Positions 23,625 through 42,359 of a stretch of 64,000 bases of DNA are shown here, piece by piece. The notes under the pieces are model-generated. The model worked only from the letters and a program-made list of their open reading frames with translations, ran no database searches and was not told the DNA's origin. Source of the stretch: an uncultured Burkholderiales bacterium (GTDB lineage Bacteria; Vulcanimicrobiota; Xenobia; Xenobiales; JADMJV01); contig CAZYPN010000002.1 in NCBI GenBank assembly GCA_964649085.1, forward strand, positions 158,991 to 222,990, given 5' to 3'. A program made the translations under genes and the position numbers. Position 1 is the first letter of the stretch. Each line of letters opens with the position of its first letter.

Positions 23625-25066
23625 CCGGCCAGCCAACGCGCCCGGTGGCGGAAACACAGCGCCAGCAACCCCATGGCCACTACCCCCAGCACGGCGCTGC
23701 CGGCCCAGTGCCCGGCAGCGCAGGCCCCGCTGCCCCAAAGGACCCGATGGCTGGAAACGACTCCGCTGAGGCTCAATAAGGCCAGCAGATAAGAGAACAT
23801 GGGAACCACCACCATGGCTGCAGACAACCAGTTCCGTCCCAACAGCCACAGCGAGCAGAACACCGTGGCGTAGGTGTCGAGCAGCATCCAGCCCAGGCCC
23901 AGCAACACCAGCACCCAGATCGCGCCAAGAGCTGCCGAAGAAGGAGCCTTGAGGCTCAGCACCATCGTGCCTGGAGCGATCAGCAGCAACCCTTCCAACA
24001 GGCGGGGCTGAAGCCGAACCAGCGCCAGACCATCCACCAGTTGCGTCGGAGTGAAGGAGGTCAGGGTTAAGTCGCGATTTTTCGGACCCAATTCTTGTTG
24101 GATAAAGCTAAGCTGCGATCCCCCGGCGAGCAGCAGAAGAAAGAAGGCTGCGTAGCCAAGGAAGAGCGCACCCAGGAAAAAGTGCAGCTGGCCGGCCACC
24201 GCTCCGAGGATGCCCAGGGCCAGGCAACTCAGGAACCACACCGGCGTACCTCGCCATACCAGGCGACTGCGATGGTAGCGATACAGCAACGGATGTAGTT
24301 GGCCCAACTGCGACCAACGCGAAGAAGGTCGCTGCCGGCAACCCCCTCGCCCCAGCCAGCACCAGGGGCCGCCCGATCCTGCCAGAAGCGGCAGCGGTCC
24401 GCCCCCGCTCTGGAGCCAGCGCAGCGTGAAACGACGGCAGGTCACAGCGCAGGCCAACAGCATTCCCAGAGTGACGGGAATAAGACATCCCGTGGCCAGC
24501 ACGGGCGAAACCAGCGCAAGCAGCTGGAAAGCCAGGCCCATCGCGAACAACATGCCGTAGAAGCCCACCAGATACCCGATGATCAGTCGCATGCTCTGGC
24601 CACGACTGGCCAGTACCTGGGACGCCATTCCCAAATAGTTGCAGAAAAGCGCCAGGGGCAGGAAGGCCATCCACAGCACGGTAGCCCCCACGGCCAGGCA
24701 GGGCTTGCCGCCAAGGACCGCTACCAGGCACGCCGCCAGGACCCAGCGACAGCCCTGCCACCAGCGCAGGGCCAGGAAGGCCGAACCCGTGTCCACCAGG
24801 GCCGAGGGAGAGATGCCCGAAACCAGCAGCTCATCTACGTGCTCAGACACCGAACGCAGGCAGGCCGGAATCGCCGACAAGGCCAGCACCAGGGGGATGC
24901 CTGCCAGGCTCAGCAGTACGAGGACCAGCCCAAATAACAGATCCTCGGAACCGATGGCGCTGACCAGCGCCACCGCAAACAGGGCCCAACTCCAACGGCT
25001 CCAGCGGCGCAGGCGCCCCTGGTAGAGCAGAAATAACGGATTCTCTGGGGACAGCAGGTTGCGCAT
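23618..25066 (-). CDS. Polytopic integral membrane protein, unknown function
   Basis: Very hydrophobic, 12 or more predicted TM segments. Trimmed to the ATG at 25066 to avoid overlap with the FmdB gene. Confidence 0.4.
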   Translation of the reverse strand: MRNLLSPENPLFLLYQGRLRRWSRWSWALFAVALVSAIGSEDLLFGLVLVLLSLAGIPLVLALSAIPACLRSVSEHVDELLVSGISPSALVDTGSAFLALRWWQGCRWVLAACLVAVLGGKPCLAVGATVLWMAFLPLALFCNYLGMASQVLASRGQSMRLIIGYLVGFYGMLFAMGLAFQLLALVSPVLATGCLIPVTLGMLLACAVTCRRFTLRWLQSGGGPLPLLAGSGGPWCWLGRGGCRQRPSSRWSQLGQLHPLLYRYHRSRLVWRGTPVWFLSCLALGILGAVAGQLHFFLGALFLGYAAFFLLLLAGGSQLSFIQQELGPKNRDLTLTSFTPTQLVDGLALVRLQPRLLEGLLLIAPGTMVLSLKAPSSAALGAIWVLVLLGLGWMLLDTYATVFCSLWLLGRNWLSAAMVVVPMFSYLLALLSLSGVVSSHRVLWGSGACAAGHWAGSAVLGVVAMGLLALCFRHRARWLAGQ

Positions 25067-25083
25067 CCCCAGATTATAACACG

Positions 25084-25308
25084 TTAATTCATCGAGCAGA
25101 ATCCCTGGTCGACACAGCTGCCACAGCCCCCCGGGGGACAGCTCATGGGCATCTCCTCGCCCCCCGACTGGGGAGAACTGAAGGCAGAGAACAGCTTGCG
25201 CAGGTCGCTTTGCTGGCAATGAGGACACTCTACGGCGTCCTCAGAACGGCGAAGCAGTTTCTCGAAACGGTGATGACATTGGTTGCAGGCGTATTCGTAA
25301 ATCGGCAT
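25084..25308 (-). CDS. FmdB-family zinc-ribbon protein (putative regulatory protein)
   Basis: 'MPIYEYACNQCHHRFEKLLRRSEDAVECPHCQ' is the canonical FmdB CxxC...CxxC ribbon. Transcribed divergently from the giant coiled-coil gene. Confidence 0.7.
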   Translation of the reverse strand: MPIYEYACNQCHHRFEKLLRRSEDAVECPHCQQSDLRKLFSAFSSPQSGGEEMPMSCPPGGCGSCVDQGFCSMN

Positions 25309-25380
25309 GGGGTAGATTTCTAGATTTCGTTTGGGTTCCTTTTAACGGGAAAACCGCTCAGACTTTCGAAGGCAGCCCCA

Positions 25381-28300
25381 GTGTCCCATCAACAACCCAT
25401 TACGCTGCAAGAGCGGCTAGAGAATATCAAGCAACGAGCCAGCGCGGTACGGGGACAGATGGAGGGGCGTCCCACGCGGACCGATGAAACCCGCGAGGAC
25501 TGGGGAGCCGTCGGTGCCTCGCTGCAGGTGCGCCTGGAGCAGCTGAGCCAGCGGCTACAGGAACGAGACCGTCAACTGGCCGAGCTGCAGCAGCGCCTCA
25601 ACGAGTCCGACTCGGGCCAGGGTCTGCGCCGCAAACAGCTGGAGCAGCTGGCGCAACAGCTCAGCTCCAGCCTGGACGAGAAAAAGGTGCTGCAGGGCCA
25701 GCTTCACTCGGCCGAAAGTCAACGTCAACAGCTGGAACTGCAGCTGCAACTGGTTCGCGACCAGCTGCAGGAGCAGCAAAAATTGCTGGGGCAGAGTCAG
25801 GGGCGGGTGCATGACCTGCGCCAGGAATTGCTGCAGCAGCAACGCCGCGTGCGCGTGGTGGACCGGCTCCAGCTGCAGCTCGACGAAGCCGGTCTGAATC
25901 TCGACGATTTGCTTCATTCGCTGGCCCAACTGGAAGGCGACTCTCCGCTGTTGCAGGCGCTTCGTGACCAGATCGGCCAGCTGCAGGGCCAGCTCGAGGC
26001 CAGTCAGCAGCGAGAACAAAGGCTGCTGCAGCACCTGCAAGATTTGAAAGCCCGCCAACAAGACCTGGAGGCCGAGAAAAACCACCTGGGTTCCGATTTT
26101 GCCGAGCTACACCGCCAGCTGCTGGAAAATCAGCGCGAGCTTGGCCAGGCGCGCGGCGAGCTGAAACGCTGGATGGAGCTGCGCAGCGAGGTCGATCCTG
26201 AACTGCCGCGCGAGGTACAGCATCTGCGCGAGCGCAGCCAGAAGCTCGAAGCCAAGTTGCGTCAGGCCGTGCTGGCGCTGGGCGAGTCGCGCCAGGCCAC
26301 CGAGCAAGAACGAGAAGCGCGCGAACTGGCCGAGCAGCTCCTGGGGAAAAGCCAGCAGCGCCTGGTTCAGCTCGAGGTAGAACTGGACGAGCAGGTGTCG
26401 GCGCTGCAGAACTCGTGGGAAGACGTCAGCCGCCTCGAACAAGAGCTGGAACAAAGCCGCCACCACAATCGCAGTCTGCAACTGCAGGTGGGCTCCTCGG
26501 ACGAACTGCAACAACGCCTACTGCAAAGCGACCAGCAGGCACAGGAGCTACAGCAGAGGCTGGCCCACAGCGACCAGGAAACTCAACAGCTGCGCCAGCA
26601 GCTGCAAGAAAGCCGCCAGCAAGCTGCCAGCTCGGCCCAACAACTGGAAGAACTCGAGCAGCAGCGCAGCCAGCTTGAGCAGCGCCTCGAGCGGGCCCAG
26701 CTGGTGCTTCACGAGCTGCAAAACCGGGCAGCCGAGGGCCAGCAAGAGCAGGTCCTGCGCCAGCAGTGGGAAGAACGCGCCCTCAAGGCCCAGGCTCGCT
26801 TTCACCAGGCGGTCGAGCGTTTGCGTTCGCAAACCGAGCAGCTTCGCCAGCAGCAAGCCGACCTGGAAAACTGGCAATTGCGCTCCGAACAGGTCCAACA
26901 GAGCCTGGAAGACAGCCAGGAGCGCCAGGTTCAGCTGCGGCGACAGCTGGAACGCTGGCAAGAAATCAGTGGTGAGTGGCAGCGGGTTGCCGAGGTTGGC
27001 CAGGAGGGCACGGCCTTCCTTGAGCAGCGGCTGGCCGAGCATCAAGAGCAGCAACTTCAGGCTCAACAGCACAGCCAGGAGTTGCAGCAGGGGCTGATTC
27101 AGTACCAGCAAGATATCCTTCAACTCGGTCAGGCTCTGGCCGAGCTCGAAGAAAGCAACCGCAGCCTGGAAACAGAACTGGGCCTGACGCGCCAGGAGCG
27201 CGACCAGCTTCATCTGCGGGTCGAGCAGCTGGTGGAAGAGGGCCGGGCCCGTCAACACGGGTTTGAGCAACGCTGGGACAAACTCAAGACTCGCCTGGGT
27301 CAGGTCCAGTCGGACCTGGAATACAGCCAGCAACGCGGCCTGATGCTGCAGGACAAACTGCAGCAAGTCGTTGAGGTCGTCCGCGAAGAAAAGCACGCTC
27401 ATCAGCAAACCCGACAACAAAAGGACCAGCTTCAGGAAGCCCTGGCCCAACTGCAAGAGAGCGCTCGCCAGAAGGACTCGCTGCTCGAGCAGCAGAGACA
27501 AGAACTCGACACCCAATCCATGGCTCTGGAAGAGTCCTGGGAAGAGGCCCATCGCCTGGGGGAAGACCTTGAACGCGAGCGACAGTCCGCGGCTCAGCTT
27601 CGCCAGCAGTTGCAAGAGCTGCGAGCCCAGCAAGATAGTTTGCGGGAAGAGCGCGATGCTCTGCGCGAGCATTTTGAAGAACTGCTACAACAAACCGATC
27701 TCGAGCGAGAGGAGTCGGCCCGAGAACTACAGCGCCAGCTGGAACTCAATCACGAGCAAACCCGTGCGCTACAGCTTCGACTGAAAGAAGTTAGCGAAGA
27801 ACTGCTGTCGGTTCAGCAACGGTTGCAAAAAGCCCAACAAAAGCTCTTGCAGGCCGTAGACAGCCTGCGTCAAGAGCGCCTGCTGCGCCAGGAACTCTCC
27901 CAGCAGATCGATGAGCGCGACCTGATGCTGGAAGAACAGACGCAGCTGCTGGCTCAGCGTGCCGAAGAACTGGCCAGCGCCCAACACCGCTGGTCGTCCA
28001 CCGACCAGCAACGTCAGCAGCTGCAGGCCAACCACCTGACCACCGTGGCCGAACTGGAGGCCCTGCGCCAGGAGTACGAAACCCAGGTGCTGGCCCTGGA
28101 AGAGTCATGGGAGGAAGCCAGTCGCCTTCAAGAGTCGCTCGACAGCGAGCGCACTCGGGCCCAGGCTCTGGAGCAGCAATGGGCGCAGGCCCAACAGGCC
28201 CAGGTTCAACTGCTGTCACAGCTCGACCAGCTGCAGGCCGCCTATTCCGAACTGCAGAGTCGCCACAGCGGTGCGCTGGAGCAGCAACAGCAGGAGCAGC

Positions 28301-31300
28301 AAGCCCTGGAGCAGCTCCATCTCCAAACCACCACGCTTCAGGAGCATCTCAAGCACCGGGTGGACCAACTGCAGCAGCTGAAAGCCTTGCGCGATCAGAG
28401 CCAGCAGCGGGCCCTGGCCTTGGAAGAGAAGCTGCGCCAGGCGGTGGTTCGGCTGGCCGAGGAAAAGCAGGCCCGCCAACAGCTGGCCCAACAAAACGAC
28501 CAGCTGATCGCTCAGCTCGCTCAGCTGGAACAAGAGGCCCGTCAGTCGCAAAGCGATCTGGTGGCCGTGCGCCAGGAGTTGGAAACCCAGCTCATGGCCC
28601 TGGAGGAGTCCTGGGCCGAGAGCAGTGCGCTTCAGGCCGCATTGAACGAGGCACGGGCCGGAGCCGAACAAGAACGAAAAGCCCACGAAGAAGCCCGCGC
28701 ACGCGTCGAAATCTTGCAGAAAGCTCATCAGCACGAAGTTTCCCTGAGAGAAGAGCTGGAGCAGGAGCTGGAAGAACTGCTACAGCTTCAGCTGCAGCTT
28801 GAGGAAGAAAAACAATCTCATCGCCACACCGGCCAGAACCTCGAACAGGTCAGGCAACGCCTGCTGGCTGTGGAACAGGAACGTGACCAGAGCGAGCAAC
28901 GCAGCCAGGCCCTCGAGGCCAAGGTGCTGCAGCTGGCCGAGCTGCTCAAGCAGCATCAGCAGCTGCGCCAGGCCGAGAAGCTCAAGGCTCAGGATCGCCT
29001 GCAGAAGTTCAGCGATGAAGTCCGCCAGCTGCGCCAGCAGCTGAGCACCAGCGAGGAAGAGAGCGCTACCCAGCAGCTGGCCCTCCAGGAAGCCTGGTCG
29101 GAAATGTCTCAGCTGCAAGAACAGCTGGAAGCCGAGCAGCAGAAACTTCTACAACTGACCGAAGAACGGGGCCGCCTCCAGGTCGACATGGCCGAGCTGC
29201 TGGCCCACAGCCAGTTGGAGAGCCAGCGCTCGCAGCAGCAGATCGGGGAATTACGCACAGAAATCCAGGCCCTGCTGGGGCAACGCCACAAGCTGGTGGA
29301 CGAGCTCAACACGCGCGGTGGCCAGCTTAAGCAACTGGCCTCCAACCAGGGAGCCTTGCTCGACCAGGTCAAGCGACAACATCAGCAGATCGACACCTTG
29401 CGAGCCCAGATGGAGGCTCGCGAGGACGATGTGGCTGGCCTGCAGCGCCAGCTCGAAGAGGAAGAGCAGCAGCGGCGACATCTGCTGGACGAACTGGAGG
29501 TGGCCACTCAGGCCAGCGACCTGCTGCAGCAAGAGTTGGGCGAGCGCGAGAACGAACTGCAATCGCTGCACGAGCGGCTGACTCGACTCGACGCGGCCCT
29601 GAATCAGGCCCAACAACAGGTGTCTTTGCTGGAAAGCCAGCGCGAGGCCTCGCAGGCGCAACTGCAGCAGCTCAGTCACAACCACGCTGAACAGATGGAC
29701 GAGCTGACGCGTCAGCTGCAGCGGCGCGAGCAGGAACTGGAAACGCTGCGCCAGATCGAAGCCGGTGCCCAGCAGGCGCTGGCCCAGGCCCAAGAGGAGC
29801 TCAACCGCTCGCAACATCAACAGCAGACACAGCAGCAACAGCTTCAGCACCATCGCCAGGAACAAAGCCGTCTGCAAGAAACCGTAGAACGCCTGGGACA
29901 GCGCTTGAGCCAGGTGGGTGGGGCCTTCCAGCAAGCCAAACTGCAGCTGGCGGCCCGCACCCAGCAACTGCAACAGGTTCAGGACAGTCGCCAGCAACTT
30001 GAGGAAGAGCTGGTTCTGGCCCAGGCACACGGCCAGCGAGAAACGGTCCGCGCCGATGAACAGCTCGAGCGGGCCGATCTGCTAGAAGCCCGACTGGAGC
30101 AGCTGACCGCCCAACAGCAAGAGCTGCTCGTCCAGGTAGAGCAGCTGCATCAACAACGCGTACCGCGGGAAGAATGGCAGGCCCTGGAGCGGCAGGCACG
30201 GGCCGGCGACCAGGAAATTCAAGGCCTGAAGGCTCAGCTCACCGACCTGCAACTGGCCCTCCAGCAGTCGGAAGAGTGGCGAGAGTCGCAGCAGCGCGAG
30301 CGCGAGGCACTGGAGTCGCGCCTCGAACGCACCCGCCAGGAGCTGGTGCAGGCCGTCGAGATCCAACAGGGATTGAAGGAACGCCTGCTGAGCGTGGTGG
30401 AAAAATTTCGCCACAGCGAGGCCCTGCGCCAGCGCCAGCAAGAGGAGTTGGAGGGCCTTCAGGAAGAGCGCCGGAACTGGCAGCTGCTCGAGCAAGAGTT
30501 GCAAGGGCGCGTCGTTCAGCTAGAGCAGATGGCCCTGGAGGGGCACCAGCAGCTCTCGCAGGAGCGCCAACAGCACGAACAACAGCTGCTCGAACGCGAC
30601 CAGCTGCTGGAGAGCTTTCGCAACGAGCTCGAGCAGGCCCGCGACCAGGTCGATCAGCTGGCTCGTGAGCTGATCGAGGCCCAGGATCGGACCTTCCAGC
30701 TGCAACAGGAGCTGGAAGTCAACGAAGACGAGTCGCAACGCGATCGAACGCGACGCGAAGAACTCAACAGCCTGGTCGCCAGTCTCGAACAACAGCTGCG
30801 CCAGCTCGGCGAAGAATCGGCCAGCCGCCAGGAGCAGCTGGAGGACCAGCTGGTTCATCAGGAAGGTCAGCTGAAGTCGGGACAGCAGGCTCTGCTGCAG
30901 GCTCAGAGCCAGCTGCGTCTGCTGCAGACCGAGCGAGACAAGCTGGTGCGGGCCTATCAGCAAAGCCGTCAGGCCCTGATCGAACACCAGCAGCAAGCGG
31001 TGGAGCAGCAGCAAAAGTGGGAACAGGTTGCCAGTGAACTGCGGGTAACTCGAACCCAACTCGGCAAAACTCAGGAAGAGCTTCAGCTGGCCCATCTGCA
31101 GGTGGAAACCCTCGAGGGCGACCTGCAGCGCCTCGAGTCGCAGCGAGATGAACTCGCCCAGCGTTCCGACTCGCGTTTCCAGGAATATGAAAACGAACTG
31201 GCTCAGCTGACGGTAGAGCTTACTGAGAAGCGCCAGGAAGCCTATCGCCTGCGCAACAGCGGCGAAGGTCTGCGCCAGGAAAACCAGTCGCTCACGCGGC

Positions 31301-34300
31301 GACTGGAAGAAACCCTGCGGGAAAAGACCGAGCTGACCCAGCGACGCGAGTTTGAAACGCAACAGTTCAAAAGCGTGCTTGAGCAGCTGCTCGGTCAACG
31401 CCAGCTGCTGGAGAGCAAGCTCAAAGAAGTCGCGGCTCAGCGCAAAGAATTCCTGCTGGAACTGAAGCGCGAGCGCCAGCTCAGCAACCAGCAGCAACAG
31501 GACCTGACCCAGCTGCAAACCCGCTTTGACGAATCGCAGGCCCTGCTGCAGCAACAGCTGCAGCAGCTCGAGCAAGTACGTGGGTATTTCGACGAAGCTC
31601 GCCAGCAAGGCCAGCAGCTCCAGCAGCAGCTACAGCAAGAATTGGGGCGTTCCAGCCAGCTGGAAGAGCAGCTGCACCATCACCAAGAGGGCTGGCAACG
31701 CGACCGCGGCCAGCTGGAACAGGAACGGCAACAGCGGCAACGGCTCGAGGTTGAGGTCGAAGCTGGCCAACGTCAGCGCGGCCAACTGGAAAGCCAGCTG
31801 GACCAACAGCGTGCTCAAATCGAGGGCCTCGAAGTCGAGCTCACCAGGCTGCAGGCAGAGTCCCATCAAGATCAGCAGCGTCTGAAGCAGGAGGCCGAGC
31901 TTCTGCAGCGCCAGCTGGAGCAGCTGAGCAGCCAGCGCCAGGGCCTGATGGACAAGCTCAAAACCGTGGCCGGGGAAAGGGCCGACCTGAAGCAGGCGCT
32001 GCAGGCCCAGCAGGAAGAGCTGGCCGAAATCCAGCTGCGCCGTGAAGTGCTGGAACTGCGCCTCGTCCAGGTAGAGGGCGAACGCGACCTGCTGCAGTCG
32101 GAATCGGAGCAATACCGGCAGCGGGTCGACGAGCTGGAAGAGCGCCTGGAACGCAGCGCCTCCGACTTCCAACAGGCCCAGGAACAGCTCCAGTTGCTGT
32201 CGGAACTGCGCGCCCAGGGTGCGCGCCAGGAACAGCAGCTGCAGGCCCTGGAGTGGGGGCGGGAAGCAGACGGACAAAAGATCGGCGAACTGCAGCAACG
32301 GCTGGAACAGGTTGACCAGCAACGCCAGGCCCTGGAAGTGGAACTGGCCCAGGCACGTGGCCGCCTGGAAGAAGCCGCCGTTCGTCGTGAGGAGCTGCAG
32401 TCGGAGATCGAAGACGCGGCTCGTCAGCTGCAGGGCCTGCGTTTTGAAGCCTCCGAATTGCGCCAGTCCCAGCAGAAGTCCAAGGAGTCGCTGCTGCTCT
32501 CGCAGCAAAAGGTCGAACAGCTCGAGGCCGAGCTCGGTGAACTGCGCACCCAGCATCAACAGCTTCAGGAACAATCGGCTCGCAACGAGGAAGAGCTGCG
32601 GCTTCTGCTGCGCCAGAGCCAGCAAGAATCCGAAGAACATCGCCAACTGTCCGAGGAACTGCTGCAACAGACACGAGAGCAGTTGGAACAGAAGGAAGCC
32701 CACCTTCTGAAGCTGGTCGATACGCTGGGTCGCGCCAAGGACCGGATGCGCGACCAGAAGGCGCGCGTGGCCGAACTGGAAAGCGAGCTGGCACAGGTCC
32801 GTGAGCAGGCCCAGGAGCATTTTCAGAGACTGATTCGCGTGACCCGCGAACGAGAAGATCTGTCGGAACTGAAGCAGCGCGAATTGGGCGAGCTGCAGCG
32901 CCAGCTACAGGCCGCCAGCGCCGAACTGGAACAGCGCCAGCGCGAACTGCTGGCGCTGGAGGCGCAAAACCAGCTGCAGCAGCGCGAACTGGTCGAGCTG
33001 AGCCGGCAGGAAGTCGCTGCCGAAGAACAGCGCACTCTGCTGCAGTCGCAACTCTTTGAACTGGAACAACAGCTGCGCTCGGCAGCCGAAGACAAGCAGC
33101 AGCTGGAGCGAGAACGAGACAGCTGGCAAGACAGGCAAGAACAAACCCAAAACGAGCTGGAGCAGCTGTCCATTGAGCATCGCGAGGTGCTGGATTCGAG
33201 GCAACAGCTCCAGGCAGAGCTGGAGCGCCTCTCGGTCCAGCTGAGCCAGCTGGAAGAGCACTCGAGCAGCGATTTGCAGCAGCGAGAACAGCAGATTCAA
33301 AAGCTCGGCGAGGCCTATGCCAAAATCCGTCAGCGCTTCGTAGAAAACCAGCAGCAACTGGCCGAGGCCCAGGCCGAGCAGGCCGCGCTGCGGCAGCGAA
33401 ACGAGCAGATCGAGGCAGAGCTGGGCCAGGCTCATGAACGATTGGAGCAGTTGCAGAGCGAAGCTCGCCAGCTCGAGGCTCAGGTCCACGAGCGCCAACT
33501 TGAACTGCAAGATCAGCAGCAGCAGCTAGAGCAACAGCGCAACGAACTGACCCGCCTTGGCCAGGAGAGCGAGAAGCAACGTTTCGAGCTGCAGCGACTG
33601 GCCCCGCTGGAAGCCCAGAACCAGGCTCAACAACGCGAGCTCATGGCCCTGAGCCGACAGGAAGCCGAGCTGGAGGAGCAGCGACAGCGGCTGCAGTCGA
33701 ACCTGGAACAGCTGAACCTGCGCCAGCAGAAGCTCGAGGGTGAACTGGCCGAGAGCGAGCGACGCCATTCCAAACTACAGGCCGAGCACTTAAAGCTGCA
33801 GCAAAAGCAGGCCACGGCCGAGGCCCAACTCGAGAGTCAACAGCAGGAAGTCGAGCGACTGCAGACCGAGCACCGCCTGGCCCGGCGCGAGGTTGAAGAG
33901 CTTCAAGAGCAACTCCAGCAGCGCGAAGTATCGACCCAAAAGCTGGGCGAGGCTTATGCCAAAGTGCGCCAGAAGCTGGTAGAAACCCAGCAGCAACTGG
34001 CCGAAGCTCAGGCCGAGGCCGAGCAGCAACAACGCCGCGCCGACCGTCTTGAGGACGATCTGGGCGGGCTGAAAGAAGAGCTGCGACTGGCCACTTTCGA
34101 GCGCAGCGCCGCTGAAGAACGCTGGCGAGGCGCCAGTCAACAGGTGCAGCAGGCGGGCGAAGAGCGCGAACGTCTGTCGCAGCTCAACGAAGAACTCAAG
34201 TCGAATCTGCGCCACACCCAGCAACTGCAGCAACAGGGCGAAGCCGACCTGGTCGAACTGAAGTTGCAGCTGCAGCAGGAACAGGAGCGAGCCGGGCAGC

Positions 34301-37300
34301 TGCAGCAAAAATTGCAGCAGGCCATTGGACGCCTGCAGCACACCAAACAGGCACTGCAGCAACGTCAGGACGAGTTGCTGGCCGGCAAAGAGGAAAAACT
34401 CCAGCTGGAATCCGAGCTGGAACAGCGCCAGCAAGCCTATAGCGAGCTGGAGCAGCAGTTGCGCCAGGCCCAGCAGCGACTGGCGGAACTGGAACCCGAA
34501 GTTGAAGGGCAGCGCGGGTTGCGGCTCGAGCTTCACGGCCTGCGAAGCCAGCTCGACAGCCTGCAGCACCAGCTGCAGCGAGCCCAGCAGCGAGAACAAG
34601 CCCTGGAAAGCCGGCTGGAGCAGGCCCAGGTTCAAGAACAGGAGCTGACCGGCAAGCTGCAACGCAGCCAGGCCAAAGAGCGCGAGCTGGAGCATCAACT
34701 GCAACGCTCGCAACAGCGAGAGCGAGAGATCGATAGTCAGCTGCAACGGGCGGGCAGCCGCGAGCGCGACCTGGAACAACAGCTGCGAGCGGGTGTCGAG
34801 CAAGAAGAGCGTCTGCGGGCCCAGCTCACCCAGGCCTGGAGCGATCTCCAGCAATCCGAACTGCTCCAGCAGCGGCTGCAGGACGAATTGAGCCAGTCTC
34901 GCTCCCAGGGCTCGCGACGTGAGAAGCAGGTGGCCGGGCTGGAAGAGCAGCTGGCCGGCCTTCAGGAATCGCTCGAGCGGGCTCGGCTGGATGGCGAGAA
35001 GCAGCTGGAGCAACATCGCGAGCGCGAGAGCCAGCTGCTGGAACAGCTAGAAAAGCTGGGAGAAGCCCTCAAGCTGCACCGCAGCAAGGCCAACGAGGCC
35101 CTGGCCGGGCTGAAACAACGCAGCGAAGAGGTCAGCGGTGAGCTGCAACTCTCGCTCCAGGAGCGCCTGGAGCTGCGCACACGGCTCGACCAGCAGGAAC
35201 ATCTCCTGGAAGAGCTGCACCACGAAGTGGACACCCGGCGCCAGCGCGAGGCCCACCTCGAGCAGGCTCTGGCCGAGGCCCGGCGGCGCGGCGGCGAACT
35301 TCAGGCGCGAGCCGGCGAGCTGGCACAATCGCTGGACGAGAGCCAGAACTTCCGGCGGCTGTTGCAAGAAGAGCTGGCCCAACAGCGTGAGCAGAGCCAG
35401 CACGACCTGGACACCCTGAATGCTCGCCTGCATGAGGCCGAGTCACGCGGCCGCGACCTGGAGGAAACCCGTTCCTTACTGCTGGAACAAGAGCAGAAGG
35501 CCCACGAGTTGAGCCTGAAACTGCGCGAGTTCCAGCAAAGCGCCATCCTTCAAGAAACCGAGCTGCAGCAGCTTCGGCAATCGCTCAAGCACGAGGAAGG
35601 CAAGCTTCAACAGCAGCAAAAGGCCCAACTCCACCAGCAGGAAATGCACCAGCAAAGGGTGCTGCAACTGCAACAGGACCTGGCCGACTTGGAAGGGCGA
35701 CTCGAAGAAAGCGAGCGTAACAACCACAAGCGTGAGCAGATCATCGGCCAGCTCAAGCAGCGCCTCGGCCAGGCGATGCAAGACCTCAGCCAGCGCCAGA
35801 CCGAGCTCCATGAGTCGCAACTGAGCCTGGAGAGGGCAGGGCGCGAACTGGAACTGAGTCGCAGCGACGGCCTGGGCAAGGAAGCGCGCATCGCCGAACT
35901 CGAGCAAGACCTCGAGCAGCGCATCCAGCGTGCCAATTCTGCCCAGCAGGAAGTCGAGAAGCTCTGGCAGCGCCTGCAGCGCGAAGAAGAACAGCGAGCC
36001 CAGCTGGCCTCCGATCTGGAAAGGCACCAGCAAGAAGCCGACCGGTTGCAGCAGCAGCTGGATGAAGCCACGCTGGAAAAACGCCAGCTGTTGCTCGACC
36101 TCGACGACGCCGCCAATCAAAAACTGCAGCTGGCGCTGGAGCTCGATCGCTCACTGGAGCAAAAGACCGCGGAAATTCAGCGCTGGCAGAAGCTGCAGGA
36201 AGAACAGCAACGCCGCCAGGACGACCTGGAAGGTCGCCTATTACTGGCCCAACAGCGAATCGAGGTCCTGACCGGAGAGCTGGAAGAACGCGAAGCTCGC
36301 CTGCAGGCTGAACGCAAGTCGGCCCAGGACCGCCAGCAAGAGTTGCGGGGCCGACTGGAACGCCAGGTGCTGGAGGCGCAGGCCCAGCAGCTGGAGCGCG
36401 AGGCCCGAGTGCAGCAACTCGAGCGCGAACAGCGCAAACAAGCCGAAGAGCTGGAACGTCAGCTGCAGGAGTTGCAAACGCAGCGCTCGGCCCTCGAAGG
36501 CGAGCTGGCCAGCCTGAAGGCCCTGGGCCAGTCGAGCCAGGCCAGCTACCAGGCCCGAATCGAGCAGATGCAGCGCGAATACGAGGGTCTGCAACGCCAG
36601 CTCAGCGAGCAGGAAGAAGAGGTTCATCAGCAACGCCTGCGGGTCTCCCAGCTGGAGGCCGATCAGGTGCTGCTCAAGCAGGCACTGCACCAGTCGGAAA
36701 CCGCCGCTCAGCAGCAACTACAGCGTCTGGAACGCCTGCAACTGGAGCGCGAGGCTCTGGAACAGCAGTTGCGTCAGCAGGAAGAGCTGGCCCACAAACT
36801 GTCGCAGCGGGCCGAGGCCGCCGGGCAAGAAGGCGAAGAGCTGCAGCGACGTCTTGAAGACGAGCAGCTCTTGCGACAGAGCCAGTGGGACGACATGAAC
36901 ACGCGCCTGGTTGAGGCCGAACGCAGGCACGCCGAGAGCGAAAGGGCGCGCGAAGAGCTGAGCCATCGCCTCAATGACGGTCAGCTGAATTACGAGATGC
37001 AGCTGTCCGAGCTGCGCCGTCAGCTCGACCAGGCTCGACTGCGTCTGGAGCGCGAGGGCGAATTTGTGCAGGGCCTGCAGGAGCGCCTGAAAGAGTCGCA
37101 GGCAGCCCAAATCCGTTTACAACAGGAGCAAGGCGAGGGGCGCCAGCAGTTGCTCGAGGCCCAGGCCGAACTGGAGCGTGCCCAGCAGGCGATGGAACGC
37201 ACCCTGAGCGAGATGCAGCTGCAGGAACGCAAGGTGGAACTGAGTCGCGAGTCTCAGGAACAGCAAAGACAGCTGTTGTTGCAGCGGGAAAGCGAGTTGC

Positions 37301-38109
37301 ACCAATTGGAAGAGGTGCGGGCCCGCCTGGACCTGCAGGTTGCCGATCTGGACCAGGAACGCGCCCGACTGCAGAAAGAGTCGGATCAACTCCGTCAGGA
37401 GCTGCAGACCTCGGGGCACCGCCTGCGCGAACAGGAAGAACGAGCACGTCTGCTTCAGGCCCAGCTCAACGTGGCCATGCAGCAGGCCGAAGAGGCCGAT
37501 CACCTGCAGCTCATGCAGATGCAGTATGAGCAAGACCTTGCCCGTCTACGCGGAGAACTGGACCAGAAACAGGCCGAAATCGACCAGCTGCAAGCCCAGG
37601 CCCGCAGCCTGTCTCGATTGCCCAACGAACTCAGCGACCGGTCGCGTCGACTGGAAGAACAGCAGGCCGAAATCCAACGGCACCGCAGTCGGGTGGACGA
37701 ATTGGAGTCGGAACTCTCGGATAGCCGTTTCTGGCGCCGAGATGCGGAAACGCGCCTGGAACGCAGCCAGCAATCGCTGGCCGAGGCCCAACGCAGCCTG
37801 GAAGCCGCCCGGCTGGAACGCGAAGAGCTGCGACGACAACTCGACGAACTGCGCGGCCAGGATGTTCGCACCCCCTACCTGCGCGCCCAGGAAGAACTGG
37901 CCGCCCTGCGTCAGGAACTGGCCCAGGCCCGAAAGCGAGAGGAACGACCGCCCGAGCCCACCCCCGAGGCCAGCCCCCCGCCACCCCGCTCGCGCCCCAC
38001 CAGCCGTAAAGCGCCTGCCAGCAAGCCTCAGGCCTGGACCCTGTTGGAGGGCTCCGAGACCAGCAGCGATCCGGCCGGTGGTGGTCTGGAGTTACCGGGG
38101 TTCTCGTGA
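25381..38109 (+). CDS. Giant (4242 aa) coiled-coil protein, Q/E/L/R-rich, modular repeats, Pro-rich basic C-terminal tail
   Basis: Uninterrupted 12,729-nt ORF. Heptad-like Leu spacing throughout, e.g. 'LQQRLNESD...LEQLAQQL'. No enzymatic motif. C-terminus 'RKREERPPEPTPEASPPPPRSRPTSRKAPASKP...'. Start GTG at 25381 (uncertain; next ATG at 25459). Confidence 0.8.
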   Translation: MSHQQPITLQERLENIKQRASAVRGQMEGRPTRTDETREDWGAVGASLQVRLEQLSQRLQERDRQLAELQQRLNESDSGQGLRRKQLEQLAQQLSSSLDEKKVLQGQLHSAESQRQQLELQLQLVRDQLQEQQKLLGQSQGRVHDLRQELLQQQRRVRVVDRLQLQLDEAGLNLDDLLHSLAQLEGDSPLLQALRDQIGQLQGQLEASQQREQRLLQHLQDLKARQQDLEAEKNHLGSDFAELHRQLLENQRELGQARGELKRWMELRSEVDPELPREVQHLRERSQKLEAKLRQAVLALGESRQATEQEREARELAEQLLGKSQQRLVQLEVELDEQVSALQNSWEDVSRLEQELEQSRHHNRSLQLQVGSSDELQQRLLQSDQQAQELQQRLAHSDQETQQLRQQLQESRQQAASSAQQLEELEQQRSQLEQRLERAQLVLHELQNRAAEGQQEQVLRQQWEERALKAQARFHQAVERLRSQTEQLRQQQADLENWQLRSEQVQQSLEDSQERQVQLRRQLERWQEISGEWQRVAEVGQEGTAFLEQRLAEHQEQQLQAQQHSQELQQGLIQYQQDILQLGQALAELEESNRSLETELGLTRQERDQLHLRVEQLVEEGRARQHGFEQRWDKLKTRLGQVQSDLEYSQQRGLMLQDKLQQVVEVVREEKHAHQQTRQQKDQLQEALAQLQESARQKDSLLEQQRQELDTQSMALEESWEEAHRLGEDLERERQSAAQLRQQLQELRAQQDSLREERDALREHFEELLQQTDLEREESARELQRQLELNHEQTRALQLRLKEVSEELLSVQQRLQKAQQKLLQAVDSLRQERLLRQELSQQIDERDLMLEEQTQLLAQRAEELASAQHRWSSTDQQRQQLQANHLTTVAELEALRQEYETQVLALEESWEEASRLQESLDSERTRAQALEQQWAQAQQAQVQLLSQLDQLQAAYSELQSRHSGALEQQQQEQQALEQLHLQTTTLQEHLKHRVDQLQQLKALRDQSQQRALALEEKLRQAVVRLAEEKQARQQLAQQNDQLIAQLAQLEQEARQSQSDLVAVRQELETQLMALEESWAESSALQAALNEARAGAEQERKAHEEARARVEILQKAHQHEVSLREELEQELEELLQLQLQLEEEKQSHRHTGQNLEQVRQRLLAVEQERDQSEQRSQALEAKVLQLAELLKQHQQLRQAEKLKAQDRLQKFSDEVRQLRQQLSTSEEESATQQLALQEAWSEMSQLQEQLEAEQQKLLQLTEERGRLQVDMAELLAHSQLESQRSQQQIGELRTEIQALLGQRHKLVDELNTRGGQLKQLASNQGALLDQVKRQHQQIDTLRAQMEAREDDVAGLQRQLEEEEQQRRHLLDELEVATQASDLLQQELGERENELQSLHERLTRLDAALNQAQQQVSLLESQREASQAQLQQLSHNHAEQMDELTRQLQRREQELETLRQIEAGAQQALAQAQEELNRSQHQQQTQQQQLQHHRQEQSRLQETVERLGQRLSQVGGAFQQAKLQLAARTQQLQQVQDSRQQLEEELVLAQAHGQRETVRADEQLERADLLEARLEQLTAQQQELLVQVEQLHQQRVPREEWQALERQARAGDQEIQGLKAQLTDLQLALQQSEEWRESQQREREALESRLERTRQELVQAVEIQQGLKERLLSVVEKFRHSEALRQRQQEELEGLQEERRNWQLLEQELQGRVVQLEQMALEGHQQLSQERQQHEQQLLERDQLLESFRNELEQARDQVDQLARELIEAQDRTFQLQQELEVNEDESQRDRTRREELNSLVASLEQQLRQLGEESASRQEQLEDQLVHQEGQLKSGQQALLQAQSQLRLLQTERDKLVRAYQQSRQALIEHQQQAVEQQQKWEQVASELRVTRTQLGKTQEELQLAHLQVETLEGDLQRLESQRDELAQRSDSRFQEYENELAQLTVELTEKRQEAYRLRNSGEGLRQENQSLTRRLEETLREKTELTQRREFETQQFKSVLEQLLGQRQLLESKLKEVAAQRKEFLLELKRERQLSNQQQQDLTQLQTRFDESQALLQQQLQQLEQVRGYFDEARQQGQQLQQQLQQELGRSSQLEEQLHHHQEGWQRDRGQLEQERQQRQRLEVEVEAGQRQRGQLESQLDQQRAQIEGLEVELTRLQAESHQDQQRLKQEAELLQRQLEQLSSQRQGLMDKLKTVAGERADLKQALQAQQEELAEIQLRREVLELRLVQVEGERDLLQSESEQYRQRVDELEERLERSASDFQQAQEQLQLLSELRAQGARQEQQLQALEWGREADGQKIGELQQRLEQVDQQRQALEVELAQARGRLEEAAVRREELQSEIEDAARQLQGLRFEASELRQSQQKSKESLLLSQQKVEQLEAELGELRTQHQQLQEQSARNEEELRLLLRQSQQESEEHRQLSEELLQQTREQLEQKEAHLLKLVDTLGRAKDRMRDQKARVAELESELAQVREQAQEHFQRLIRVTREREDLSELKQRELGELQRQLQAASAELEQRQRELLALEAQNQLQQRELVELSRQEVAAEEQRTLLQSQLFELEQQLRSAAEDKQQLERERDSWQDRQEQTQNELEQLSIEHREVLDSRQQLQAELERLSVQLSQLEEHSSSDLQQREQQIQKLGEAYAKIRQRFVENQQQLAEAQAEQAALRQRNEQIEAELGQAHERLEQLQSEARQLEAQVHERQLELQDQQQQLEQQRNELTRLGQESEKQRFELQRLAPLEAQNQAQQRELMALSRQEAELEEQRQRLQSNLEQLNLRQQKLEGELAESERRHSKLQAEHLKLQQKQATAEAQLESQQQEVERLQTEHRLARREVEELQEQLQQREVSTQKLGEAYAKVRQKLVETQQQLAEAQAEAEQQQRRADRLEDDLGGLKEELRLATFERSAAEERWRGASQQVQQAGEERERLSQLNEELKSNLRHTQQLQQQGEADLVELKLQLQQEQERAGQLQQKLQQAIGRLQHTKQALQQRQDELLAGKEEKLQLESELEQRQQAYSELEQQLRQAQQRLAELEPEVEGQRGLRLELHGLRSQLDSLQHQLQRAQQREQALESRLEQAQVQEQELTGKLQRSQAKERELEHQLQRSQQREREIDSQLQRAGSRERDLEQQLRAGVEQEERLRAQLTQAWSDLQQSELLQQRLQDELSQSRSQGSRREKQVAGLEEQLAGLQESLERARLDGEKQLEQHRERESQLLEQLEKLGEALKLHRSKANEALAGLKQRSEEVSGELQLSLQERLELRTRLDQQEHLLEELHHEVDTRRQREAHLEQALAEARRRGGELQARAGELAQSLDESQNFRRLLQEELAQQREQSQHDLDTLNARLHEAESRGRDLEETRSLLLEQEQKAHELSLKLREFQQSAILQETELQQLRQSLKHEEGKLQQQQKAQLHQQEMHQQRVLQLQQDLADLEGRLEESERNNHKREQIIGQLKQRLGQAMQDLSQRQTELHESQLSLERAGRELELSRSDGLGKEARIAELEQDLEQRIQRANSAQQEVEKLWQRLQREEEQRAQLASDLERHQQEADRLQQQLDEATLEKRQLLLDLDDAANQKLQLALELDRSLEQKTAEIQRWQKLQEEQQRRQDDLEGRLLLAQQRIEVLTGELEEREARLQAERKSAQDRQQELRGRLERQVLEAQAQQLEREARVQQLEREQRKQAEELERQLQELQTQRSALEGELASLKALGQSSQASYQARIEQMQREYEGLQRQLSEQEEEVHQQRLRVSQLEADQVLLKQALHQSETAAQQQLQRLERLQLEREALEQQLRQQEELAHKLSQRAEAAGQEGEELQRRLEDEQLLRQSQWDDMNTRLVEAERRHAESERAREELSHRLNDGQLNYEMQLSELRRQLDQARLRLEREGEFVQGLQERLKESQAAQIRLQQEQGEGRQQLLEAQAELERAQQAMERTLSEMQLQERKVELSRESQEQQRQLLLQRESELHQLEEVRARLDLQVADLDQERARLQKESDQLRQELQTSGHRLREQEERARLLQAQLNVAMQQAEEADHLQLMQMQYEQDLARLRGELDQKQAEIDQLQAQARSLSRLPNELSDRSRRLEEQQAEIQRHRSRVDELESELSDSRFWRRDAETRLERSQQSLAEAQRSLEAARLEREELRRQLDELRGQDVRTPYLRAQEELAALRQELAQARKREERPPEPTPEASPPPPRSRPTSRKAPASKPQAWTLLEGSETSSDPAGGGLELPGFS
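32950..34030 (+). repeat. Two diverged ~640-655-nt direct repeats inside the giant coiled-coil gene
   Basis: 'EAQNQ(L/A)QQREL(V/M)(E/A)LSRQE' at ~32957 and ~33610. 'QKLGEAYAK(I/V)RQ(R/K)(F/L)VE(N/T)QQQLAEAQAE' at ~33298 and ~33938. Confidence 0.5.
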
Positions 38110-39107
38110 GGCAGCTGCTGCTTCAGTCACCGATCTTTCTCGAGCACGACACCGGTCGTCACGTGGAGAACGCCGCAAGGCTGCAAGCCATTCAACAGCA
38201 GCTCGTAGGTCTGGAAGGCTGGCGGTCTGCCAGCCCCCGAGCGGCCAGCGACGACGAACTGTTGCTGGCTCATCAACCCTCCCACCTGCAACACCTGCTT
38301 CAGCTGCAAGCCGAGGGTGCGCGCTGCGTCGATGCCGACACCGTCCTTTCGGCACGCAGCCTGGAGGCAGCCCGTCTGGCCGCAGGTGGGGGGCTGCTGC
38401 TGGTGGACGAGGTGCTGAGTGGCGAGGCCGACCTGGGCTTCGCCCTGGTGCGCCCCCCGGGCCACCACGCCACGCCCGACCGCGCCATGGGCTTCTGCCT
38501 GTTTTCCAATGTGGCGCTGGCCGCCCTCTACGCCCGCCAACGTTGGAAGCTGGAGCGCATCTTCATCCTCGACTGGGATGTACACCACGGCAATGGCACC
38601 CAGGACTGCCTGCTGGAGCATCCCCAGGTCACCTTTTGTTCGCTGCACCAATGGCCGCTTTACCCGGGTTCGGGCTGGCACGACGAGCGCGGCCAGGGCA
38701 ATCTGTACAATCTGCCGATGCCGGCCGGCTGCGGCGACGCCGAGTACTTATTTGCGCTGGAAAAGCTGGTTGGACCCTTGCTGGACAAGGTCCAGCCTCA
38801 ACTGATCCTGCTTTCTGCCGGCTACGACGCCCACCAGCGCGACCCGCTGGGTTCGATGGAAGTCACCACCAACGGCTTTGCTGCCATGGCCTCCTGGCTG
38901 CGCCAGCGAGCGACGCAATTGCGGGCACCTTTATTGGGCTTTCTCGAGGGAGGCTACGACCTGCGCGGACTGTCCGAATCGGTAGCGGCTACGCTGCAGG
39001 CCTGGTCTCGGCCGGGCCCGCTCAGCCCGGTGGAGGCTCGGGCATTGAGCAGTGGGGTCCTGCAGAGGATCTACCAGGCTCAGGCAAGCTGGCAACTCGA
39101 GGGCTGA
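38106..39107 (+). CDS. Histone deacetylase-family enzyme (HDAC/AcuC/acetylpolyamine amidohydrolase class)
   Basis: 'LVRPPGHHA', 'GFCLFSNVALAA', 'ILDWDVHHGNGTQD', 'SAGYDAHQRDPLGSMEVT' are the HDAC-fold catalytic and Zn-binding blocks. GTG start overlaps the giant gene TGA (GTGA at 38106-38109). Confidence 0.85.
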   Translation: MRQLLLQSPIFLEHDTGRHVENAARLQAIQQQLVGLEGWRSASPRAASDDELLLAHQPSHLQHLLQLQAEGARCVDADTVLSARSLEAARLAAGGGLLLVDEVLSGEADLGFALVRPPGHHATPDRAMGFCLFSNVALAALYARQRWKLERIFILDWDVHHGNGTQDCLLEHPQVTFCSLHQWPLYPGSGWHDERGQGNLYNLPMPAGCGDAEYLFALEKLVGPLLDKVQPQLILLSAGYDAHQRDPLGSMEVTTNGFAAMASWLRQRATQLRAPLLGFLEGGYDLRGLSESVAATLQAWSRPGPLSPVEARALSSGVLQRIYQAQASWQLEG

Positions 39108-39242
39108 TCTGGATCATCGTTCTCCGCTTTGGGGCCGACTATAGTCCACAGGGCTCTGGCAGGAGTCCGCTTCCGTCGCTCGATATCCTGGTAACGGCTT
39201 CGCTTAGAGCGATGACGGGGGTCACTTACCTGGAGGTAACTT

Positions 39243-40382
39243 ATGAAGACAACAACGCGCAATCTTTTCGGAGGTCTGGCCCTCACGGCGGCCCTGGTTT
39301 CCGGCTGCGGCGACGAGGAATTCGCCGCCTTCCTGGGACGTCAGCTCAATTTTCTGCTGGTGCCCAACACCGCCAGCACCAACGTAGACATTCGCCTGCT
39401 CGAACAGGGCAGCGGCATTCCCGGCCCCAATGTGCAGGTAGCCACCGGCAACCACCCCACCATGGTCGCCATTACGCCCAATGGCGCTTTAGGCTATGTG
39501 CCCAACGCCGACGAGGTGGGCAGCATTACGGGCTACAACATCGACGCTTCCAACAGCAACTTTGTGCAGGCCCCCGGCTCGCCTACCCCGGTAGACTTTC
39601 CTCCCTGCACCTTGAACATCCACCCCAGCGGGCGCTTTATGTATGCCGTGGGCGACAATGACATCACCGGTTTTGGCATTGGCGAAACCGGCGCGCTCAC
39701 TCCTCTGGCGAATACCAGTTTCGAATTCGGTGGCAAGGCTACGGTAGGCATTACGCCAGGCGCCTTCTTCCGCAATGGTCAATTCTTCTTCCACAACGCT
39801 GGCTTTGAGGGAGTCGTGGCCTTCGAGGTCAACGGCGACACCGGGGCCCTTACCGGTGACTTGCCCGTAATCCAAGGCAAAGGTCCGTCGACCTCCATTG
39901 CCCGGCTGCCGAACACCGAAATTCTGCTGGTAGCACGACGAGATTTTGGCCAGGAAGATGCCCGCAGTGAGCAACTGCAAGGCCACAGCGACGGCGTGCT
40001 CGAGAGTTACCGGATCGAGGCCAATGGTAGTGCAACCTTCCTCGACTCCGAACCCTTCCAGGCCGACCCGATGGGCGTGGTGGCCAGCACACGCGGCTTT
40101 GCCTATGTGGGCACCAGGTCTACCGGCTCGGGGGTGCTGGCCTTCCAGGTGGACGCCAACGGCAACATCTCCAACGAGGTGGCCTTTGCCGCCGGTGCCG
40201 AGGACAGTTCCTACCCGGGCGTGGACCCCTCGGGCAACTTCGTCTTCGTTTCGGCCCAGAATACCAATCAGGTGTTCGGATTTCGAATCGACGACGTGGG
40301 CAACATGATCGCGCTGGCCGGTTCACCGTTTGCCGGTTACCTGGCCCCCGGCGTGCCCACCCTGGCCTTCTATCAACTGTAG
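39243..40382 (+). CDS. Lipoprotein, 7-bladed beta-propeller lactonase-like (Pgl/3-carboxymuconate cycloisomerase-like fold)
   Basis: Signal peptide plus lipobox 'LTAALVSGCG'. Repeated propeller-like segments 'FMYAVGDNDITGF', 'FVFVSAQNTNQVFGFRID'. SD 'GGAGGT' 7 nt upstream. Confidence 0.5.
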   Translation: MKTTTRNLFGGLALTAALVSGCGDEEFAAFLGRQLNFLLVPNTASTNVDIRLLEQGSGIPGPNVQVATGNHPTMVAITPNGALGYVPNADEVGSITGYNIDASNSNFVQAPGSPTPVDFPPCTLNIHPSGRFMYAVGDNDITGFGIGETGALTPLANTSFEFGGKATVGITPGAFFRNGQFFFHNAGFEGVVAFEVNGDTGALTGDLPVIQGKGPSTSIARLPNTEILLVARRDFGQEDARSEQLQGHSDGVLESYRIEANGSATFLDSEPFQADPMGVVASTRGFAYVGTRSTGSGVLAFQVDANGNISNEVAFAAGAEDSSYPGVDPSGNFVFVSAQNTNQVFGFRIDDVGNMIALAGSPFAGYLAPGVPTLAFYQL

Positions 40383-40436
40383 GCCATAGCAGCTCCTTGA
40401 ACAGAAAAGCCCGGGCTCCGGCCCGGGCTTCTTCGT

Positions 40437-42311: not shown

Positions 42312-42359
42312 CGGAAAGGTTTCCAAATCCAGGGTTCCCAGGCCTTCTGGAGAAGCTGG

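Follow-up and report, generated by a model that had tools for sequence, protein, structure and literature searches.

Coiled-coil scaffolds thousands of residues long are regarded as a eukaryotic hallmark, and the largest rod-only bacterial example known to us is HMW2, at ~0.2 µm. This 200-kDa coiled-coil protein of Mycoplasma pneumoniae, with an estimated alpha-helix length of ~190 nm, is reported to be both scaffold and ruler of the attachment organelle (PMC8191905). Crescentin, FilP, and Scy, which together with the cyanobacterial coiled-coil-rich proteins (CCRPs) belong to the intermediate-filament-like proteins of bacteria, are much shorter and organized differently, and a survey that covered 22 proteomes ranked SMC-type arms as the longest coiled coils of prokaryotes (PMC1322226). 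Here, we describe a gene for a 4242-residue, almost pure coiled-coil protein (the giant protein) in a 64,000-nucleotide stretch of contig CAZYPN010000002.1, which we call the window and which derives from an uncultured bacterium placed in Vulcanimicrobiota. An original prediction, made from the letters of the DNA, had placed this protein far beyond the length of described bacterial coiled-coil proteins, and it does lie there. We interpret it as a genuine, selectively maintained, cytoplasmic member of a lineage-specific family that would serve as a structural scaffold or tether, a rod ending in a C-terminal docking peptide, and we put the probability of this reading at roughly 0.55.

The giant coding sequence occupies positions 25381..38109 of the forward strand, starts with GTG, and runs for 4242 codons to a single terminal TGA. 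It is not a chance frame, since stops should fall at ~0.03 per random codon at 62% GC; by our own estimates from base composition, 4242 open codons would arise by chance with a probability of ~e^-120. The codon composition is native bacterial, with a third-position GC content (GC3) of 0.73, similar to that of adjacent genes. The product, a chain of 480 kDa, consists largely of Q (20.2%), L (16.7%), E (15.7%), R (11.0%), and A (8.3%) and has no Cys. The original prediction of one uninterrupted frame, with repeat collapse, a frameshift, or a stop on resequencing as its main hazards, was borne out in other assemblies. On a Logan contig (L086, from DRR438461; 99.5% nucleotide identity), a gene was called with the identical GTG start and a length of exactly 4242 aa. 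Samples in which the gene is present comprise SRR15237813, DRR438460/DRR438461, the SRR348312xx series, and ERZ27240673. Across the first 1696-1842 codons, L086, L087, and L088 show 31-32 synonymous and 10 nonsynonymous differences and not one stop or frameshift; across the last 739-763 codons, L003 and L005 (98.7-98.8% nucleotide identity) show 21 synonymous and 9 nonsynonymous differences, and L001 is 100% identical to the window over positions 34388-48705. From this ~3:1 synonymous excess we estimate a ratio of nonsynonymous to synonymous rates (dN/dS) of roughly 0.1-0.15. Repeat collapse is unlikely because the gene lacks long DNA repeats, the longest being ~100 nt at 79% identity. On these sequence comparisons we conclude that the gene is real and under purifying selection, and assembly collapse and pseudogene status are rejected for the window lineage.

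The codon usage of the gene leaves traces at the DNA level. AT skew is +0.28 to +0.40 over positions 24001-38000 and ~0 in the rest of the window, a skew that the CAG, GAG, and CTG codons of a Q/E-rich coiled coil would be expected to give. Antisense open reading frames (ORFs) of up to 408 aa lie inside the gene (33790-35016, 31630-32820, and 26548-27672, all on the reverse strand), and one of 1714 aa lies within an orthologue (L006, 2095-7239, reverse strand). Most likely these are not genes and arise only because the CAG/CTG/GAG/CTC codon set is self-complementary.

Nearly the whole protein is a heptad-repeat rod (25402..37938, forward strand; aa 8-4186) made up of 38 register-continuous segments. 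Hydrophobicity along the chain has a sharp periodicity peak at 3.50 residues and a harmonic at 2.33, and heptad assignment by a Viterbi procedure places 4167 of the 4242 residues (~98%) in the 38 runs, of which the median is 99 residues and the longest 343; shuffled versions of the sequence break into 102-120 runs with medians of 27-34 residues. Stretches outside the heptad pattern are confined to aa 1-7, 186-190, 273-276, 1593-1595, and the tail (4187-4242). Leu fills 47% of the a positions and 43% of the d positions, and the e and g positions are occupied by Q, E, and R. Conservation among orthologues tracks this register: three-way identity is 47% at a, 51% at d, 43% at e, and 47% at g, and falls to 37% at c, 32% at b, and 27% at f. 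In this gradient we see independent evolutionary support for a genuine register under structural constraint. The protein is thus almost pure coiled coil, as had been proposed, and of the further proposal that it forms one continuous coiled coil of ~0.6 µm, the length stands as an upper bound and the continuity does not. Fully extended, the rod would measure ~619 nm (4167 residues at 0.1485 nm each), a value that bounds a straight rod from above because of ~37 discontinuities. The interruptions comprise ~34 register shifts, of which 16 are stutter-like and 9 stammer-like, together with a small number of kinks at Pro or Gly.

The charge pattern of the rod suggests how chains may associate. Of the charge pairs formed between g(i) and e'(i+5), 96 are attractive and 34 repulsive, compared with 63 and 64 in permutations (z = 5.7). 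Since these pairs are mostly attractive, parallel, in-register association of giant chains is favored, and the chains would associate as parallel homo-oligomers, with dimers the probable form. Net charge is ~-235 and is evenly distributed along the chain. AlphaFold 2 (AF2) modeling of the two chain ends gave helices with six short breaks for aa 1-440 (mean predicted local distance difference test [pLDDT] score of 65 from a single sequence) and three helices, with pLDDT mostly 75-97, for aa 3941-4189.

The rod is not uniform in its sequence. Five modules of the type [LM]AL[EQ]E[SA]W[ES]E recur in the N-terminal region (26404..29103, forward strand), at aa 342, 716, 906, 1074, and 1235; all share a single heptad register with the Trp at e, and they are spaced by 161-374 residues (~24-55 nm). 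They may be remnants of segmental duplications of ~160-190 aa or, alternatively, repeated docking sites. A module of ~215 aa is present in two copies farther along (32947..34017, forward strand; aa 2523-2666 and 2740-2879) and is single copy at the corresponding site of the orthologues, so that the window lineage carries an additional ~215-aa module near aa 2520-2880; in the other clade, the part that corresponds to giant aa 3360-3510 is longer by ~700 residues. Protein-level repeats are few and diverged, comprising the modules of 160-215 aa at aa 280-1260 and 2520-2880. The most conserved rod block (34678..35130, forward strand; aa 3100-3250) has the pattern RDLEQQL..EQEERLRA..AWSD..RLQDEL..RREKQ..LEEQLA, and here, as at aa ~3600-3650, three-way identity reaches 55-70%, surface positions included. 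A second conserved block (36178..36780, forward strand; aa 3600-3800) contains RWQK..DLE.RLLL.QQR..ELEERE, SLEGEL.SL.AL, and DQVLLKQAL, and, compared pairwise with the orthologues, it is 52-58% identical over aa 3601-3793 and 41-43% identical over aa 3702-3900.

The C-terminal tail (37939..38106, forward strand; aa 4187-4242) differs in character from the rod, as the original prediction of a distinct Pro/Arg/Ser-rich tail had it, and it also carries conserved motifs. It consists of a Pro-rich stretch, a basic patch, and then two short motifs. The last 53 residues (aa 4190-4242), which hold 13 of the 23 prolines of the protein, have pLDDT values below 50 and are modeled as disordered. Motif 1, W-[ST]-L-L-[DE] (38035..38049, forward strand; aa 4219-4223), has W and LL invariant in all six aligned tails; motif 2, G-G-L-E-L-P-G-F (38080..38103, forward strand; aa 4234-4241), is invariant in the same six and recurs in the tails of L094 and L095, which brings the count to eight tails from at least four lineages. 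GGLELPGF forms the extreme C terminus in the other lineages, and the window lineage and the fragment P0001 carry one extra Ser. The linker before the motifs is Pro-rich, basic, and variable in length. Because eight consecutive invariant residues end a tail that is otherwise variable and modeled as disordered, we regard the tail as a candidate docking element.

A genome scan with the product of the adjacent gene, a deacylase of the HDAC family, found its closest relatives (51-60% identity) in four metagenome-assembled genomes, two of them labeled Vulcanimicrobiota. Collinear giant orthologues occur in three other lineages (L006, L007, and L094), two of which are labeled Vulcanimicrobiota (Eremiobacterota). 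Their frames, each ended by a locus or contig edge, exceed 2870 aa: in L006 and L007 the coiled-coil frame stays open for at least 2872-2880 aa and continues past the locus edge, and in L094 the frame exceeds 3324 aa. JAFKGI010000061.1 and JAFEBA010000101.1 are contigs that carry orthologues. In tile-wise BLAST, the orthologues aligned collinearly with the giant protein between aa 1426 and the C terminus, with blocks that are 40-58% identical separated by large indels. Three features define the family, namely collinear rod blocks (e.g., RWQK..DLE.RLLL.QQR, DQVLLKQAL, and RLRLERE.EF..GLQERLKE), the C-terminal W[ST]LL[DE]...GGLELPGF tail, and an HDAC-family gene downstream; all three are present in the window, L006, L007, and L094, and the tail is present in P0001, P0002, P0004, and P0006/L095.

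Relatives beyond these proved hard to find. When the C-terminal 1200 aa were compared exhaustively by phmmer with 1.84 billion cluster representatives, five matches emerged, of which four are true C-terminal fragments and one, the sole eukaryote-like match (P0005), is compositional. A 342-aa C-terminal query was saturated by coiled-coil candidates (at least 8000), none significant; a 128-aa tail query matched only the fragment P0001, and an L006 tail query matched only P0004, P0006, and P0007. Two metagenome contig scans with family alignments were swamped by degenerate patterns, and no relative was confirmed in them. The N-terminal 3000 aa were searched against Pfam, NCBIfam, PHROGs, and PADLOC only. 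With five phmmer matches in all, the family is either rare or largely invisible to bias-filtered searches. As judged from sequence, this is a small, lineage-specific new family, so far confined to Vulcanimicrobiota/Eremiobacterota-like bacteria; the Vulcanimicrobium alpinus paper does not mention a coiled-coil or cytoskeletal structure.

The HDAC-family (class IIb/HDAC6-like) deacylase gene (38106..39107, forward strand) lies directly downstream of the giant gene, and its GTG start overlaps the giant TGA stop by 4 nt (GTGA), which implies translational coupling of the two. Among solved structures, its product comes closest to HDAC6, a bacterial lysine deacylase (5zmp), and HDAH. The synteny that the original prediction had singled out for checking is conserved, with the giant gene upstream of HDAC in four lineages (the window, L006, L007, and L094). 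One gene intervenes in the other lineages, a major facilitator superfamily (MFS) transporter in L006 and L007, where the 10 kb upstream of HDAC is filled by the MFS gene and the giant frame, and an unannotated 499-aa gene of transporter size in L094, where the order is giant, 499-aa gene, HDAC, S9 peptidase. The HDAC ORF begins at or just upstream of the end of the MFS gene in L006 and L007, and in L094 the gene called for HDAC and the 499-aa gene before it overlap. All three lineages have a gene of the S9 prolyl-oligopeptidase family next after HDAC (L006, 10959-12881; L007, 10798-12876; L094, 13365-15254), and the window has a lactonase-like beta-propeller gene (39243-40382) in this position instead. 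No flanking gene other than the giant and HDAC genes is common to the window and L006-L009. The linkage is clade-specific, because L008 and L009, which hold more distant HDAC orthologues, have no giant gene in the available upstream sequence.

Regular-expression searches of the giant protein found no Walker A/B, ABC signature (LSGG), CxxC, or LPXTG motif; a Pfam scan found no family above cutoff, so that the recognized globular domains that might have explained the protein as a known family did not appear. The protein has no signal peptide, transmembrane segment, or hydrophobic N terminus, the maximum Kyte-Doolittle hydropathy over 19 residues being 0.59. No enzymatic, DNA-binding, membrane, or secretion domain was detected in it, and a sequence search of the PDB gave no match. 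A cytoplasmic location is predicted because there is no signal peptide, transmembrane segment, or LPXTG motif.

These features suggest a working model, which draws on architecture and analogy. Two, or possibly more, giant chains would pair in parallel and in register to form a segmented, semi-flexible rod of up to ~0.6 µm, near the width of a cell, that would act as a structural scaffold or tether. The C-terminal W[ST]LL[DE] ... GGLELPGF-COOH would dock the rod end onto a partner protein or structure, and the conserved surface-exposed blocks and repeated Trp modules may recruit or space other components. The length of such a rod would be set approximately rather than exactly and would evolve by gain and loss of modules of ~160-215 residues.

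Several observations weigh against this interpretation. The heptad and charge analyses were made with our own scripts (a simple Viterbi model), not with COILS or DeepCoil. Oligomeric state and orientation are inferred from charge statistics alone, and cores with Leu at both a and d are also able to form trimers. There is no 28-residue or other long charge periodicity in the rod, of the kind that accompanies staggered filament packing in myosin. The AF2 models are monomers of the two chain ends, and the C-terminal one is a folded-back hairpin whose best Foldseek matches are fragments of SMC arms. The cross-lineage comparison covers giant aa 1426 to the end, the orthologue loci being cut so that the N-terminal 1425 aa fall outside it. 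Special conservation of Lys, as expected for deacylase targets, is not supported in the rod, where Lys positions are 41% identical and K-to-R exchange is frequent; the Lys pattern therefore gives no link between the rod and the deacylase as its substrate. Finally, L094 (ENA ERZ28574331:scaffold_1262) has an in-frame TAA at 9290-9292, 228 codons before the end, which reads REY-stop-ADV versus REYEADV (GAA) in its relatives and removes the conserved tail; this stop may be a true nonsense allele, mark a pseudogene, or stem from an error in sequencing.

By analogy of architecture, HMW2 is the closest functional counterpart that we found. Like the giant protein, it is a very large cytoplasmic bacterial coiled-coil protein, and its coiled-coil domains align with the cell axis (PMC8191905). 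The resemblance does not extend to sequence, as neither phmmer with the C-terminal 1200 aa nor the PDB sequence search indicated homology, and the hosts differ, HMW2 belonging to a wall-less mollicute and the giant protein to a flagellated, piliated diderm of a different phylum. If HMW2 is taken as 1818 aa, the giant protein is ~2.3 times as long in residues, with a potential rod of ~0.6 µm; to our knowledge, HMW2 has no enzymatic domain, and we know of neither a conserved C-terminal docking peptide nor an HDAC linkage for it. Eukaryotic parallels include the golgins (giantin), CENP-F, and the myosin and paramyosin rods, which likewise run to thousands of residues of Q/E/L/R-rich heptads; golgin tethers also combine a rod with short terminal interaction motifs (PMC5267433). 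However, no homology to these eukaryotic proteins was found, and the giant protein lacks the membrane anchor of giantin and both the motor domain and the 28-residue charge repeat of the myosin system.

The alternative that fares best, and that we nevertheless consider unlikely, is that the protein is an intermediate-filament-like polymer that assembles laterally and longitudinally, the way crescentin, FilP, or Scy does. It is coiled-coil-rich, cytoplasmic, and acidic, and three-way identity at its surface positions (b, c, and f) is 27-37%, versus ~14% expected from composition by our own estimate. Such proteins have been described from several bacteria, and, together with the cyanobacterial CCRPs, they share with the giant protein a coiled-coil-dominated, nonenzymatic makeup with heptad stutters and a presumed structural role (PMC6599971, PMC7002697). 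The giant protein nevertheless lacks the tripartite head-rod-tail layout with its short rod, has no long-range charge periodicity, and shows no sequence relation to Pfam Filament or other families, and a net charge spread so evenly would oppose lateral packing unless counter-ions or partners intervened. Scale and periodicity also set it apart: with Scy at ~1326 aa, it is >3 times the length of Scy and ~10 times that of crescentin or FilP, and its canonical 7-residue periodicity (3.50) is unlike Scy, which has an unusual long repeat and not canonical heptads.

Slightly less credible still is a precise molecular ruler, in which some cellular structure would take its size from the length of the rod, the role reported for HMW2. 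The almost pure rod with distinct ends would suit such a role, and there is the reported precedent of HMW2 itself, where lengthening or shortening the coiled-coil regions altered organelle length by 0.13 nm per residue (PMC8191905). Orthologue lengths, however, differ by hundreds of residues, which weakens this reading, put forward by the original prediction: counted from giant aa 1426 to the C terminus, the window protein has 2817 aa and that of L094 has 3302 aa (~70 nm apart), and inter-landmark segments vary by -30% to +140% between lineages. The summed length from the first shared landmark to the C terminus varies less (8-16%) than single segments do, and collinear spans taken whole vary by 8-17% between lineages. 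The ~34 register breaks and several Pro kinks, for their part, make a rigid ruler unlikely, and the giant protein differs from HMW2 in that its length varies between orthologues.

We consider it improbable that the protein is an exported fiber, i.e., a type I secretion system (T1SS) or nonclassical substrate whose tail acts as the secretion signal and which forms a surface fiber or matrix. Giant size, acidity, absence of Cys, and an unstructured C-terminal tail are traits of T1SS substrates, and the giant protein has all of these, its tail being conserved; a transporter gene also lies directly downstream of the giant gene in L006 and L007. That transporter is an MFS protein, however, and not part of a set of ATP-binding cassette transporter, membrane fusion protein, and TolC (ABC/MFP/TolC), and it is missing from the window. 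A stable coiled coil of 0.6 µm would moreover need to remain unfolded until export. In comparison with surface and secreted fibrillar proteins (M protein, Omp-alpha, tetrabrachion, and T1SS adhesins), we found no signal peptide, anchor, RTX or Ig-like repeats (Pfam), or neighboring T1SS genes, and this lack of signal peptide, anchor, and T1SS context makes secretion unlikely.

A more specific version of the tether that we favor is highly speculative, and we give it little weight. The FtsZ C-terminal peptide (LDIPAF...) and the SSB tip (D-I/L-P-F-COOH) appear to resemble LELPGF-COOH, and the giant protein might be imagined as a half-micrometer cytoplasmic tether whose C-terminal LELPGF-COOH, set behind a disordered linker, docks onto a hub of the division or DNA machinery, with assembly controlled by the cotranslated HDAC6-like deacylase. 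If true, FtsZ/SSB-like docking under deacylase control would be a bacterial counterpart of the acetylation-regulated eukaryotic cytoskeleton, for which we know of no described bacterial precedent. The conservation pattern of Lys does not support such control.

The remaining candidates can be set aside. A chromosome-organizing protein of the SMC/Rad50/MukB type might be proposed because NCBIfam SMC models match the giant protein in 14 stretches (253 bits in total), and SMC, MukB, Rad50, and SbcC share its long coiled coils and give weak compositional matches to it as arm profiles or structures; Foldseek with the C-terminal model likewise returned generic coiled-coil or SMC-arm matches only. Yet 253 bits is far under the 567-bit cutoff, the reported stretch lies in the profile arm (positions 683-943 of 1181), no SMC_N or hinge family was matched in Pfam, the Cys-free chain can hold no Zn hook, its rod is several-fold longer, and its charge pattern favors parallel pairing over a folded-back antiparallel arm. 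Without ATPase head or hinge, as the original prediction had also noted, and without hook, SMC identity is effectively refuted. An artefact, be it misassembly of a repeat, a pseudogene, or an ORF open by chance in DNA rich in GC and in CAG/CTG, could draw on the antisense ORFs, which show that the codon set suppresses stops on both strands, and on the in-frame stop of one orthologue, but it is refuted by independent assemblies from different samples that reproduce parts of the gene and in one case all of it, by a dN/dS well under 1, by divergent collinear orthologues with heptad-position-specific conservation, and by the lack of long repeats. A phage tape-measure or antiphage defense protein is rejected, with only 19.8 bits in PHROGs (to a minor head protein family), nothing in PADLOC, and housekeeping neighbors (TamB, UDP-glucose dehydrogenase, rpsB, and tsf).

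The wider gene content of the window, which includes FlhA, PilB, GspF/PilC, TamB, UDP-glucose dehydrogenase, rpsB, and tsf, indicates that the host is a flagellated, piliated diderm. FlhA is cut at the window start and is followed by a PilB-like ATPase (5667-7382, reverse strand), GspF/PilC (10531-11745, reverse strand), a response regulator and Hpt protein (11844-13012), and a TamB/AsmA-like protein of 1916 aa (14817-20567); a carbamoyltransferase gene is also present among these motility and envelope genes (window 1-20567). Upstream of the giant gene, a 536-aa ORF (23618-25308, reverse strand) is really two divergently transcribed genes of 482 and 74 aa. The 482-aa protein is Leu-rich with hydrophobic N-terminal stretches and has no Pfam match, and the gene for the 74-aa Zn_ribbon_8 (FmdB-like) protein ends 72 nt from the giant start. 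Farther downstream, a 1039-aa ORF (40437-43556, reverse strand) is probably no gene, as independent calls place a 624-aa (reverse) and a 451-aa (forward) gene there, neither with a Pfam match. The true start of the gene within a 265-aa ICMT-like ORF of the window differs from the ORF start. An Rfam scan of the window gave no match, and promoter and terminator scans revealed nothing informative.

We class the giant protein among the known bacterial coiled-coil structural proteins, as a new family at the extreme of their size range. An SMC-like label is what automated annotation will tend to give it, and word-indexed or bias-filtered searches will mostly miss its family. The AT-skew fingerprint would allow genes of this Q/E-rich coiled-coil type to be found from composition alone. 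In Vulcanimicrobiota/Eremiobacterota, a barely cultured phylum, a conserved and selected rod of 4242 residues that could span a cell would widen the size range of bacterial structural proteins ~2-3 fold, and the invariant eight-residue C-terminal peptide, together with the conserved HDAC-like neighbor, provides a handle for finding what the rod organizes.

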